Source of the DNA: a virus
Lineage: Duplodnaviria > Heunggongvirae > Uroviricota > Caudoviricetes
Reading direction: 5' to 3' (one strand)
Virus record (IMG/VR): IMGVR_UViG_2706794673_000008
DNA: 4,927 nucleotides
Shown: positions 1-4,850 of the stretch, piece by piece
Layout of the letters: each line of letters opens with the position of its first letter
Numbering within the stretch: position 1 is the first letter of the stretch
The notes under the pieces: model-generated
What the model saw: the letters and a program-made list of their open reading frames with translations, nothing else
What the model was told of the DNA's origin: nothing
The model's database searches: none
Position numbers and translations under genes: made by a program

Positions 1-110
1 TGAGGCAGCACCTGGCACGGCTGGGACGGAAGTCGCTGTCGTTCTCAAAATCGGTGGAGCTGCATGACAAAGCCATCGGGCATTATCTGAACATAAAACA
101 CTATCAATAA
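1..110 (+). CDS. insB: IS1 transposase InsB, C-terminal fragment (5' end outside window)
   Basis: Frame with codons starting at 3 reads ...[35 protein letters not shown] then TAA at 108-110, the recalled InsB C-terminus. Confidence 0.8.
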
Positions 111-125
111 GTTGGAGTCATTACC
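1..125 (+). mobile_element. IS1 right end (3' portion including the right terminal inverted repeat); the rest of the element lies outside the window
   Basis: Sequence 1-125 matches the 3' end of IS1 as I remember it, ending ...CAATAAGTTGGAGTCATTACC at 125. One difference from the canonical copy I recall (AAAGCC vs AAAGTC near position 73). Confidence 0.9.
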
Positions 126-132
126 CCAATTT

Positions 133-146
133 TTTACGTACGTAAA
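133..146. promoter_or_regulatory. Perfect 14-bp palindrome TTTACGTACGTAAA, 8 bp from the IS1 end and about 155 bp upstream of the porin start
   Basis: Read directly: positions 133-146 are self-complementary. Function unknown; candidate dimeric-regulator site. Confidence 0.2.
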
Positions 147-214
147 CCACTAAATGATATTTGCGAGAATGCTACCGAGTATTGAAAACACCACTACAAA
201 TACATAAGCAAATC

Positions 215-235
215 CCAACAAATAACCAACAAATA
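215..235 (+). repeat. Tandem direct repeat CCAACAAATA x2 with 11-bp period upstream of porin gene
   Basis: CCAACAAATA at 215-224 and again at 226-235, separated by one A. Spacing of one helical turn, 67-87 bp upstream of ATG 302; resembles response-regulator direct-repeat sites in general architecture only. Confidence 0.3.
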
Positions 236-301
236 GATTAGATGAATATTTATCGCGCAATGACATCATTTTTTAATAATAGTTCAAAAAAAGGGCTCAC
301 G

Positions 302-1384
302 ATGAAAAAATTAACAGTGGCAATTTCTGCTGTAGCTGCATCAGTACTGATGGCGATGTCTGCTCAGGCAGCTGAAATTTATAATAAAGACAGTAACAAG
401 CTGGATCTGTACGGGAAAGTTAATGCTAAGCACTACTTCTCCTCTAATGATGCAGATGATGGTGATACTACTTATGCCCGTCTTGGCTTCAAAGGTGAAA
501 CCCAAATCAACGATCAACTGACTGGTTTCGGTCAGTGGGAATATGAATTCAAAGGCAACCGCGCTGAATCTCAAGGTTCCTCCAAAGATAAAACCCGTCT
601 TGCCTTCGCTGGCCTGAAATTCGGTGACTACGGCTCCATCGATTACGGCCGTAACTACGGTGTAGCATACGACATCGGTGCGTGGACTGACGTCCTGCCA
701 GAATTCGGTGGTGACACTTGGACTCAAACAGATGTGTTCATGACTGGTCGCACCACTGGTGTTGCAACTTATCGTAACAACGACTTCTTTGGTCTGGTTG
801 ATGGTCTGAACTTTGCTGCTCAGTATCAGGGTAAAAATGACCGCACTGACGTAACTGAAGCTAATGGTGATGGTTTCGGTTTCTCCACTACTTATGAGTA
901 TGAAGGATTCGGTGTAGGTGCAACCTATGCTAAATCTGACCGCACTAATAATCAGGTTATCTACGGTAACAACAGCCTGAATGCATCTGGTCAAAATGCT
1001 GAAGTATGGGCAGCTGGTCTGAAATATGATGCGAACAACATCTATCTGGCTACCACCTATTCTGAAACCCAGAACATGACTGTTTTTGGTAATAACCATA
1101 TTGCCAACAAAGCACAAAACTTCGAAGTAGTTGCACAATATCAGTTCGACTTCGGTCTGCGTCCGTCCGTTGCTTACCTGCAATCTAAAGGAAAAGACTT
1201 GGGTGCGTGGGGTGATCAGGACCTGGTTGAATATATTGATGTAGGTGCAACCTATTACTTCAACAAAAATATGTCCACTTTTGTTGATTACAAAATCAAC
1301 CTGATTGATAAGAGCGATTTCACGAAAGCATCTGGCGTTGCTACCGATGATATCGTTGCTGTAGGTATGGTTTACCAGTTCTAA
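302..1384 (+). CDS. nmpC: Prophage-encoded general porin, NmpC/Lc (OmpC/OmpF/PhoE) family, 360 aa, apparently intact
   Basis: ATG 302 with AAGGG at 291-295. Signal peptide [23 protein letters not shown] then mature AEIYNK..., and C-terminal ...AVGMVYQF with terminal Phe typical of beta-barrel porins. Strongly resembles NmpC/Lc lambdoid porins from memory. The ORF-track start at 242 adds 20 non-signal residues and is not favoured. Confidence 0.9.
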
Positions 1385-2041: not shown

Positions 2042-2182
2042 TCATACTCCTGCTCCTGTCAGGGTTTTGGCGTAATTCTTCAGTATTCGGTAATCGGTCA
2101 AAACAGAACCGGGGAAACGATATAAGCGCAGATGCCCCCAGCGGTGGCGAAGAAGTTCTGCCATATAAAACTCAAACATCAT
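2042..2182 (-). CDS. ylcG: Small nin-region protein YlcG-like, 46 aa
   Basis: ATGATG start at 2182 overlapping the rusA stop (ATGA); translation [46 protein letters not shown]; TGA at 2042-2044. Sits between rusA and Q as in DLP12. Not in the supplied ORF track (below its length cut-off). Confidence 0.6.
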
Positions 2183-2541
2183 TCATTCCCCATTTCGGTG
2201 ATGGTCAGTTCCAGCCTCCCACCTTTGGTAACAGGCATCTTCACAACGCGGTAATCAACGACCTGAGCATCATCCAGCCAGAAACCTGCTTTGGTGAGTG
2301 CGTCAAAAGCGGCTTTTTGCAGATTATCCAGGTCACGGCGACGGCGATCCGGCATGTGGCACTCAATACGGATTTTCACTGGCATAGCCAGGCCGATATC
2401 CAGCATTGCGTTTTTAATGATTCGGGTGACGTTATCGCGGTATGCCTGCCCTTCTGCGCTGATGTGTGTGCGCCCGCGATTATGGCGGTAATAGCGGTTA
2501 TTGCTCGGAGGCCAGGGTAATGTGATGCTGTAGGTATTCAC
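2179..2541 (-). CDS. rusA: Holliday-junction resolvase RusA, 120 aa
   Basis: GTG start at 2541 overlapping the ybcO stop (GTGA). Protein [26 protein letters not shown]...[13 protein letters not shown] matches recalled RusA essentially along its length. Confidence 0.9.
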
Positions 2542-2828
2542 GCCTTAATAACCCCCTCTTTCAGCCAGATAACCTGCGTTCTCGCCATACCTTCCAGCGC
2601 GCATTCTTTTGCATACTCAGCATCGACAAAATATGTGCGGCGGTCGATTTCGTCGTGACAGGCAGAACATGCAATGGTGGCAATCAGGTCTGGCGGTTTG
2701 ATACCGGTACCGCACAATCCAGCCAGCCGGATATGTGCCAGTACTGACGTTTCAGGATTGCCATTACATACGCCAGGGATTCTTACCTGGCATTCCCGAC
2801 CACGCGCTGCTTTTCTCAAATCAGCCAT
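2538..2828 (-). CDS. ybcO: YbcO-like nin-region protein (Cys-rich, putative nuclease, DUF1364-type), 96 aa
   Basis: ATG at 2828 preceded by AGGAGG; protein [37 protein letters not shown]...[11 protein letters not shown]... The ORF-track upstream start at 2867 is a TTG inside ninE and is rejected. Confidence 0.8.
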
Positions 2829-2991
2829 GATTCCTCCTTGCTGCCAGTCGCAACCATTTTTTATCAACCAGGCTAGCGGTATATCCGAGCAGTGTTGGTA
2901 TTTCGGATGGCTTCAGCTCAGGCTTACGCTTACGACGATTTGATACTCTGTAGATGTGCCCGTTCATGACACGAATAAGCGGTGTAGCCAT
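2821..2991 (-). CDS. ninE: NinE-family protein, 56 aa
   Basis: Hand translation of the minus strand: [56 protein letters not shown], stop TGA at 2821-2823. GGAGG upstream; start shares one base with the ybcN stop (TAATG); 8-nt overlap with the ybcO start. Not in the supplied ORF track (below its length cut-off). Confidence 0.75.
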   Translation of the reverse strand: MATPLIRVMNGHIYRVSNRRKRKPELKPSEIPTLLGYTASLVDKKWLRLAARRNHG

Positions 2992-3446
2992 TACGCCTCC
3001 TGCTTATCGCGCAGCTGCTGGTATTCACAGCTCTGCGGAATTGTCAGGTGGCAGCCGATATTCATCGCCCAGGCTTCGACTTTGCACAGGAAGATGTACA
3101 TCTCGCCGGTTTCCAGCTCTGACGTATGGCGGAGGGATTGGACGGTGGTGACCTCGCCGGACACGACATCTACACGGTCTTTGCTTTCGTAGCCGAGATA
3201 GGTGTGCTTCATCGCGTCTTTGACCCACTCAGGCGTAGCGAAGGTCTTGCCGCGGGCGATGAGATATTCGCTGATCTCCGTGTACCACATGTGGCTGAGC
3301 GCGTTCTGCGACAGGCTGCGCTTCTCGCGCCACGGCTTAACCTGCAGGCGTAAGCATTGCCCGGCATCCAGCAATGGCTGAATCTGCTGGCCGATGGCCG
3401 CGAAGTTACCGCGATGGAGTTTGATGCCGTCTACTGGCAGAGTCAT
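2991..3446 (-). CDS. ybcN: YbcN / NinB(Orf)-family recombination protein, 151 aa
   Basis: ATG at 3446 with GGGAGG upstream; contains an RSLSQNALSHMW motif resembling lambda NinB/Orf; position immediately upstream of ninE as in lambdoid nin regions. Confidence 0.85.
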   Translation of the reverse strand: MTLPVDGIKLHRGNFAAIGQQIQPLLDAGQCLRLQVKPWREKRSLSQNALSHMWYTEISEYLIARGKTFATPEWVKDAMKHTYLGYESKDRVDVVSGEVTTVQSLRHTSELETGEMYIFLCKVEAWAMNIGCHLTIPQSCEYQQLRDKQEA

Positions 3447-3710: not shown

Positions 3711-4088
3711 ATGACCAACAAAGAAAACAAAGATAAATATATTAACAAGTTCAAGAAAGAGCTTTCAAAATATATACAACCAACTGCTGGAGTGGACATT
3801 CAATTATTTAACTCTAAGGATGGTGGTGGTGTAATTAAAGCCACTTTGAATAGAAGTGGAAAAAGAAAATCATCTATTGCTGGTAATTTTACTAAATTAG
3901 GTGAGGCAATTACCTCGAGTGGGCAGAGGGTTTTTGGTGGTGATCTATCAAATGTGAATTTTTACGGAACAAATACGATTTTTGATGGAGATACAATATT
4001 TTTAATTAAATCACCTGATTCAGAGGAGTGGTCATCACAAAAAGCTTCCAAAGACGTAGAGGGCATCGTATTTGGAGGGAAAAAATGA
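3711..4088 (+). CDS. Hypothetical protein, 125 aa, soluble, Lys-rich N-terminus and Gly-rich beta-like core; AT-rich codon usage
   Basis: ATG 3711 to TGA 4086-4088; no signal peptide or TM segment; region is visibly much more AT-rich than the flanking nin genes. No family recognised. Confidence 0.6.
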   Translation: MTNKENKDKYINKFKKELSKYIQPTAGVDIQLFNSKDGGGVIKATLNRSGKRKSSIAGNFTKLGEAITSSGQRVFGGDLSNVNFYGTNTIFDGDTIFLIKSPDSEEWSSQKASKDVEGIVFGGKK

Positions 4089-4132
4089 TTAACATTACTA
4101 CTAAGGATGCACTCAAGTCAGTGGTGAAGTAA
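4085..4132 (+). CDS. 15-codon micro-ORF (MINITTKDALKSVVK) with a strong SD, overlapping the stop of the upstream gene; possibly the true 5' end of the downstream membrane-protein gene broken by a frameshift
   Basis: GGAGGG at 4073-4078, then A6, then ATG 4085 overlapping TGA 4086-4088 (ATGA); stop TAA at 4130-4132. Overlaps the open part of the downstream gene's frame between 4105 and 4129. Confidence 0.25.
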   Translation: MINITTKDALKSVVK

Positions 4133-4170
4133 GAGATCTAGTAATTCTTCTTGAAACTGATGGAAAAACG

Positions 4171-4512
4171 GTGTCTGATTATTTGCAGCCAATCCCTCCC
4201 AAAAAAGATACACACTGGAGCATGATTTTCATTCCGGTAGCAATTTATATACTACTTAATCTTGTATACATTATTGCTCACCCATTATTTCCTGAAAAAT
4301 ATCTAAAAACATCAACATCTATATTTCTATTCATTTCCTTCATATTAAGTGCAATAGTAGCATATTTTGTTTTCCATAAGCATAAATCTGCCACTCGATC
4401 CATATGCAGCTTAGTGTTCTTAGTGTTAATTGTAGGTGCTAACGTAGGGTTTATCAGTTACAGCGACCTAACACAAAAAGCGACGCAAAAATTAGATAGT
4501 TTGTCTAAATAA
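4171..4512 (+). CDS. Hypothetical small integral membrane protein (about 3 TM helices), 113 aa as drawn; start uncertain
   Basis: Three hydrophobic stretches (IFIPVAIYILLNLVYIIAHPLF, IFLFISFILSAIVAYFVF, ICSLVFLVLIVGANVGFISY). The GTG start at 4171 has only a weak SD; alternative in-frame ATG at 4222, or an upstream start at 4085 if a frameshift is assumed. TAA at 4510-4512. Confidence 0.55.
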   Translation: MSDYLQPIPPKKDTHWSMIFIPVAIYILLNLVYIIAHPLFPEKYLKTSTSIFLFISFILSAIVAYFVFHKHKSATRSICSLVFLVLIVGANVGFISYSDLTQKATQKLDSLSK

Positions 4513-4619
4513 TTATGTTGCCATGCGAAGTATGCATGGCTGCATGTCTGCCTTCCATTTAAAATGGGCTAAGACCTATAACCCTAAATATTATTCTTTA
4601 TTATCTTCTTTACCACTTC

Positions 4620-4850
4620 GGTGATGCTGCCAACTTACTGATTTAGTGTATGATGGTGTTTTTGAGGTGCTCCAGTGGCTTCTGTTTCTATCAGCTGTCC
4701 CTCCTGTTCAGCTACTGACGGGGTGGTGCGTAACGGCAAAAGCACTGCCGGACATCAGCGCTATCTCTGCTCTCACTGCCGTAAAACATGGCAACTGCAG
4801 TTCACTTACACCGCTTCTCAACCCGGTACGCACCAGAAAATCATTGATAT
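4620..4850 (+). mobile_element. IS1 left end (left inverted repeat plus 5' part of insA), truncated internally at about 4850
   Basis: GGTGATGCTGCCAACTTACTGATTTAGTGTATGATGG... matches the recalled IS1 left end. Similarity to IS1 stops after ...AAAATCATTGATAT (4850), where IS1 continues GGCCATG but the window continues TGTCAGCGCC. Confidence 0.9.

Follow-up and report, generated by a model that had tools for sequence, protein, structure and literature searches.

An intact NmpC-type prophage porin gene with an incomplete promoter region on a Shigella sonnei draft contig

The analysis of the studied window suggested that its prophage porin gene is intact and that the promoter of this gene has been crippled by a private deletion of 214 bp; we estimate the probability of this reading at about 55%. 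The window, 4,927 bases in length, is the entire contig CWTL01000212.1 of the short-read draft assembly GCA_001253255.1 of Shigella sonnei (L017 in our comparisons). Both contig ends lie inside IS1: positions 1–125 are the 3′ end of one copy, and positions 4619–4849 are the start of another. The host prophage is a decayed, IS-bounded, DLP12-like lambdoid remnant. For comparison, we used seven further S. sonnei assemblies that share the IS1 junction of the window, namely the complete chromosome CP049179.1 (L007) and the drafts L016 and L020–L024. The upstream region was also aligned with that of four relatives in which it is uninterrupted by IS1, namely ETEC1747, NDM1, UPEC536, and K-12 DLP12.

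The porin gene was located at positions 302–1384 of the plus strand as an open frame of 360 aa, with the signal peptide encoded at 302–370, the mature protein starting from 371, and the stop codon at 1382–1384. The deduced protein matched the Pfam family Porin_1 (PF00267) over the full length of the profile (E = 3.1e-153; profile positions 1–337 of 337, residues 29–360). In the NCBIfam “porin OmpC” subfamily it scored 518 bits versus a cut-off of 484, and its scores were under the cut-offs of the OmpF and PhoE equivalogs; “porin OmpC” is also the label given to the protein by the NCBI pipeline. Residue 24 (AEIYNK...) was aligned with residue 1 of the mature OmpC, OmpF, and PhoE chains from PDB, and therefore the signal peptide should comprise 23 residues; the PDB matches extended over residues 24–360 with E values from 1e-137 to 1e-116. 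The protein ended in ...VYQF, that is, with a terminal Phe. From these matches, we infer that the product is a precursor of the OmpC/OmpF family, predicted to form a 16-stranded beta-barrel trimer with pore activity.

When the protein was compared with the K-12 NmpC, rebuilt by in silico removal of IS5, 329 of the 365 aligned positions were identical (90%), and the first 148 residues were the same in both. It was also 100% identical to “OmpD” of the complete phages PhiR34_1 and PhiR68_2 and equal to the product of genes annotated as WP_000737275.1 (porin OmpC) in several E. coli genomes. The exact protein is extremely common and occurs in 17,488 indexed blocks of the genome collection. At the nucleotide level, the S. 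sonnei gene differed from the E. coli copies at 11–17 positions, with zero amino acid changes. In the comparison with K-12 NmpC and the phage and E. coli copies, no frameshift, missing segment, or decay of the porin ORF was found. Thus, the full-length ORF with a signal peptide and a C-terminal Phe, noticed in the initial annotation, was borne out by the 360-aa frame, the Porin_1 match, the alignment with PDB chains, and the ...VYQF terminus. The distribution of silent changes was uneven: all 16 differences between the window and the ETEC1747 gene were synonymous and fell within positions 409–724, a stretch of 316 bp, and other loci with the identical protein had differing subsets of synonymous changes. 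Such a pattern is suggestive of mosaic recombination between alleles that are subject to strong purifying selection.

The genes around the porin were those of a lambdoid prophage. The prophage marker quuD, encoding a Q-type late antiterminator, was found at positions 1573–1956 of the minus strand, convergent with the porin gene, and was followed on the same strand by ylcG, rusA, ybcO, ninE, and ybcN (2042–3446) in the order known from K-12 DLP12. On the L007 chromosome, the porin gene is flanked by quuD on one side and by the holin-lysozyme-Rz genes on the other, the latter being located beyond IS1. The same Q-porin-S-R-Rz layout, with the porin on the opposite strand, was present in ETEC1747, K-12, and phage PhiR34_1, and the temperate phages PhiR34_1 and PhiR68_2 both carry the porin allele of the window between Q and S-R-Rz. 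Together with the 90% identity to K-12 NmpC, the DLP12-like gene order supported the assignment of the gene, also made in the initial annotation, to the NmpC-type porins of lambdoid prophages, with an intact ORF.

The spacer between the porin gene and quuD (1385–1572) was 96% conserved with K-12 and UPEC536. According to the terminator scan, transcription of the porin gene likely ends at an intrinsic terminator at positions 1522–1548 of the plus strand, consisting of a G+C-rich hairpin (1522–1539) and a T run; the spacer also contained a long hairpin at approximately 1400–1433. A Q-dependent late promoter is presumably located in this spacer on the minus strand, and in K-12 the small RNA IpeX is encoded just 3′ of nmpC. 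No RNA family was recognized anywhere in the window, the porin-quuD spacer included, when it was scanned against Rfam with a threshold of E ≤ 1.

In the distal part of the window, a gene for a 125-aa protein (3711–4088) is followed by the gene for a membrane protein of 142 aa in E. coli relatives (4085–4512); the pair is located on the strand opposite to ybcN and the replication gene P. In the window, the second gene was frameshifted by a 1-bp deletion near position 4109, which left an ORF of 113 aa (4171–4512). This exact form occurred on only three contigs, the window being one of them, and it was named only from Shigella sonnei, as “Uncharacterised protein”; the contig was assigned to this species on that basis. 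For the gene pair, no significant match was found in Pfam, NCBIfam, or PADLOC, and the 142-aa protein gave only a sub-threshold match to 7TMR-DISM_7TM. The second IS1 began at position 4619. As judged by comparison with ETEC1747, it interrupts the prophage replication gene P approximately 30 bp before the 3′ terminus of this gene. This IS1 is in turn truncated after approximately 230 bp by one end of an IS21-family element; the IstA gene of the latter starts just past the contig in L007 and L016.

The IS1 fragment upstream of the porin gene (1–125, plus strand) included the end of insB′, with the stop codon at 107–109, and the right inverted repeat, which ended with ...GGAGTCATTACC at position 125. 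It matched the 3′ ends of complete 768-bp IS1 copies, at 5886–6011 in L016 and at 9487–9611 in L007; a single base, at position 73, differed from L016. IS1 transposase Pfam domains were called in both of these copies. Given the insB′ stop codon at 107–109, IS1 transcription is directed toward the porin gene. Positions 126–133 held a copy of the 8-bp target-site duplication CCAATTTT, which was found on both sides of the 768-bp IS1 in L007; the window has the right-hand CCAATTTT copy only, because the contig begins within IS1. The uninterrupted target site was present in ETEC1747, NDM1, UPEC536, and K-12. The IS1 junction was found in every sampled S. sonnei assembly covering the essD-nmpC spacer and was absent from the complete E. 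coli genomes. An exact-match scan of the species-representative genome collection recovered neither the IS1 junction nor the deletion junction described below, as would be expected if that collection subsumes Shigella under E. coli.

IS1 is a clean insertion into the spacer between the holin gene (essD) and the porin gene, 390 bp 5′ of the ATG. Position -390 is outside the region from -199 to -1, whose removal in K-12 eliminated the PnmpC-dependent effect (PMC11677980). The element by itself probably does no harm to the nmpC promoter, which, judged by position, it would leave untouched. As a separate observation, the IS1 copy of L007 (region 8652–10001) lies between the origin of Q-dependent late transcription and the holin-lysozyme-Rz genes, and the S. 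sonnei IS1 may act as a polar block on the expression of the prophage lysis genes.

The distance from IS1 to the ATG was 176 bp in the window (126–301) versus 390 bp in each of the seven other S. sonnei assemblies, which share the identical junction. The alignments revealed the origin of this difference. Positions 126–235 corresponded to the distal part of the native essD-nmpC spacer, from -390 to -281 relative to the ATG, and positions 236–301 to its proximal part, from -66 to -1. The 176 bp are thus a composite of these two parts joined at 235–236, and the native stretch from -280 to -67, 214 bp with a GC content of 28%, is absent. This segment was kept in K-12 DLP12, ETEC1747, NDM1, UPEC536, and 7/7 of the other S. 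sonnei assemblies. Hence, the deletion was private to the assembly of the window among the S. sonnei assemblies examined; none of 5,426 complete E. coli genomes contained its junction. Outside IS1, the 214-bp gap was the sole difference between the window and the sister isolate L016, the remaining bases being a perfect match. Within the proposed scenario, a further deletion of 214 bp in one isolate would have fused the distal spacer to the 66 bp that immediately precede the ATG.

These results also bear on the claims made about IS1 in the initial annotation. The IS1 end at position 125 was confirmed by the match to complete IS1 copies and by the right inverted repeat. The spacing of 176 bp was counted correctly, but it does not represent the native upstream region, from which the composite differs by the lack of 214 bp. 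The alignment with K-12 nmpC including the upstream region, which had been proposed there as a check, was run, showed no coding lesion, and exposed the 214-bp gap. The annotation had further supposed that IS1 may have removed or altered the native control sequences. The region does appear altered, by the separate 214-bp deletion, whereas IS1 itself is a simple insertion at 390 bp. An explanation in which the control region was truncated or replaced by the insertion of IS1, leaving 176 bp, can draw only on the raw spacing in the window; it is contradicted by the other assemblies, and we regard it as extremely improbable: the same junction lies 390 bp from the ATG in the seven S. sonnei assemblies, the insertion is a simple one with an 8-bp target duplication and both flanks intact, and the missing DNA is located 110 bp from the IS1 end and is not adjacent to it.

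The analysis of the breakpoint at 235|236 revealed neither microhomology nor N. Two mechanisms of deletion were considered and ruled out. An IS1-mediated adjacent deletion was rejected because IS1 and the breakpoint are separated by 110 bp of native DNA, and repeat slippage was rejected because of the lack of microhomology, the nearest shared 7-mer predicting a different product.

The evidence for the deletion comes from one short-read draft contig, and an artefact of assembly or gap closing has a lower but appreciable probability. In that case, the true genome would have the 390-bp spacer and a normal promoter controlled by CRP and OmpR, with IS1 located harmlessly upstream. The draft nature of the assembly, the low GC content of the absent stretch (28%), and the retention of the segment in 7/7 other S. 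sonnei assemblies are consistent with this explanation. In addition, L025, an S. sonnei draft whose accession prefix is similar and which apparently belongs to the same submission series, has an N-gap (112–568) that spans the AT-rich region upstream of the porin gene, the same stretch that appears deleted in the window; in the drafts L018 and L024, runs of N occur in other parts of the locus. Short-read coverage of this AT-rich stretch is therefore evidently poor, which makes a mis-join possible. However, the junction contains neither N nor the shared breakpoint sequence that a k-mer or overlap mis-join normally needs, unresolved joins in these assemblies are marked by N (as at position 5242 of L016), and elsewhere the contig is base-perfect when compared with the sister isolate. 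On balance, we prefer a real deletion.

The possible effect of such a deletion can be judged from what is known about the nmpC promoter, PnmpC. In the work of Onstead et al. (PMC11677980), deletion of the region from -199 to -1 in K-12, or a terminator block, decreased IS5 transposition by about 2.5-fold, and this drop was attributed to the loss of PnmpC-driven transcription of ins5A, the IS5 transposase gene. In the same article, 5′ RACE of nmpC, with a product of 1.4 kb, placed the start of a sigma-70 promoter at a “G” within -199 to -1, in agreement with earlier mapping, and PnmpC is described as activated by CRP and repressed by OmpR, IHF, and MprA (PMC11677980). Repression of nmpC by OmpR was also noted elsewhere (PMC5438342), and nmpC was listed among the CRP targets (PMC3105977). 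From the 1.4-kb RACE product and the K-12 geometry, we calculated that the leader is well under 100 nt.

A hexamer scan of the native spacer gave TTGAAA (-82), separated by 18/19 bp from GAATAT/AATATT (-58/-57), as the best pair, with G residues downstream of it at -47 and -45. The best CRP-like site, AGAGATCTACTTCACA, starts at -126; its center at about -71.5 from a start at -47 would be at a standard class I position. The sequence CTTACATCTTGAAATAATCA at -90 resembled an OmpR box. The matches from this looser scan for hexamers and for CRP, OmpR, and FNR sites are weak evidence; the stricter consensus promoter scan detected no sigma-70 site with at least 9/12 matches in either the window or the native spacer, and the FNR matches in the spacer reached only 7/10 and were unconvincing. 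The block from approximately -93 to -10 was nearly invariant among the four divergent relatives. The -35, -10, and start positions of the nmpC-type promoter were thus assigned putatively, from hexamer matches and conservation.

The deletion from -280 to -67 takes away the probable -35 hexamer TTGAAA together with the sequences resembling a CRP site and an OmpR box. In the window, the former position of the -35 hexamer is now occupied by AAATAA/ATAACC, a poor match. The retained candidates lie within 236–301 of the plus strand and comprise the -10 hexamer GAATAT/AATATT (244–250), the G starts at 255 or 257, a leader of about 45 nt, and the Shine-Dalgarno sequence AAGGG (291–295). The conserved regulatory region of PnmpC is therefore incomplete in the window, which bears on the regulation of the gene and not on its identity. 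The proposed mechanism thus assumes that the -35 hexamer and both putative regulator sites would have been lost and the -10 hexamer, start, leader, and ribosome-binding site kept. The predicted outcome is at most low, unregulated transcription via weak fortuitous promoters or IS1 read-through.

It can also be supposed that the deletion is real and that the porin is nevertheless made, free of both CRP activation and OmpR repression; we consider this unlikely, and less probable than an artefact. Transcription would then proceed from the retained -10 hexamer, paired with some hexamer that happens to lie upstream, from the weak promoter-like sequence TTTACG-17-GATATT (133–161, plus strand), which is now 214 bp closer to the gene, or by read-through from IS1. 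The -10-like hexamer, the leader, and the Shine-Dalgarno sequence are still present; the combinations ATAACC-17-AATATT and TTTACG-17-GATATT provide weak matches; IS1 is oriented toward the gene; and the OmpR-like repressor box was lost along with the activator site. However, the substitute -35 matches are poor, with 7–8/12 matches (8/12 for TTTACG-17-GATATT) in DNA of 30% GC, where such matches are common. Moreover, since PnmpC is reported to be CRP-activated (PMC11677980), the loss of the CRP-like site should reduce its output.

Read-in transcription from IS1, which the initial annotation had also raised, fits the orientation of the element, and the terminator scan predicted no plus-strand intrinsic terminator between IS1 and the porin ORF. 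The IS1 promoter, however, has been described as extremely weak, and InsA represses it (PMC12428005); therefore, read-in should be slight. A literature search yielded no report of nmpC expression for S. sonnei or for this isolate. Low expression from a crippled promoter remains our preferred reading.

A separate question is whether such a loss could have been selected. The 214-bp loss might be real and, rather than neutral decay, a selected event in this isolate, either silencing a surface-exposed porin that can serve as an antibody target, a phage or colicin receptor, or a route of antibiotic entry, or freeing the gene from CRP and OmpR control; we consider this improbable. If true, it would represent regulatory rather than coding pseudogenisation, which is overlooked by ORF-based surveys of Shigella decay.

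Most of the background to this locus is already known, including the porin family, its prophage location, the K-12 copy broken by IS5, the functional phage copies, the control by CRP and OmpR, and heavy IS1 activity in Shigella. The apparent strain-level loss of 214 bp in the promoter region is what is specific to the window. Transcription of nmpC with FNR-dependent induction has been described in S. flexneri (PMC4229854), and the protein was put forward as an antigen of this species (PMC7809897); therefore, a strain-level loss of the promoter would matter to those who rely on its expression. The locus also illustrates that an ORF that looks “intact” can be disabled by a deletion in the promoter region that is visible only against relatives, and that the spacing between an IS element and a gene on a single draft contig can mislead. 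Otherwise, the importance of the result is small, amounting to bookkeeping on the well-described nmpC-type porins and Shigella IS activity.

Among the known systems, PA-2 is an active lambdoid phage whose Lc porin (protein 2) is expressed in the lysogen, and in 1986 Blasband and colleagues (cited in PMC11677980) reportedly described lc and nmpC as homologous phage porin genes. The PA-2 record was absent among the phage matches listed (the best 25 of 42). Unlike PA-2, the prophage of the window is an IS-bounded remnant, and the promoter region of its porin gene appears damaged. A role as a functional lysogenic-conversion porin, which the initial annotation had considered feasible for this copy, is thus doubtful in this isolate, because the prophage is a remnant bounded by IS elements and the -35 and activator sites have likely been lost.

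The porin resembles the chromosomal OmpC, OmpF, and PhoE, as well as OmpK36 and OmpK37 of Klebsiella, in its full-length Porin_1 domain, mature N-terminus, and C-terminal Phe. Unlike the genes of chromosomal OmpC, OmpF, and PhoE, the gene of the window is located in a prophage late region, outside the ompC locus. The window also shares features with the IS1 insertions and IS-driven decay of Shigella, where IS expansion is well documented (for example, PMC7373316): it has an intergenic IS1 with a short target duplication, and neighboring genes are cut by IS1 and by the IS21-family element. In this respect the locus showed no unusual feature. It differs from such decay in that the lesion with the likeliest effect on the porin is located away from any IS element.

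The closest counterpart considered here is nmpC of K-12 DLP12. The position and orientation of the two porin genes relative to quuD-ylcG-rusA-ybcO-ninE-ybcN are the same, the downstream spacers are 96% identical, and the upstream segments 126–235 and 236–301 are near-identical to their K-12 counterparts. The porin of the window has 360 aa, compared with 365 aa in K-12, and the differences between them cluster in a few variable stretches of the C-terminal two-thirds. The lesions of the two loci are distinct: the K-12 gene is interrupted by IS5 near its 3′ end and has kept its promoter, whereas the window has an intact porin ORF without 214 bp of the promoter region and with IS1 further upstream.
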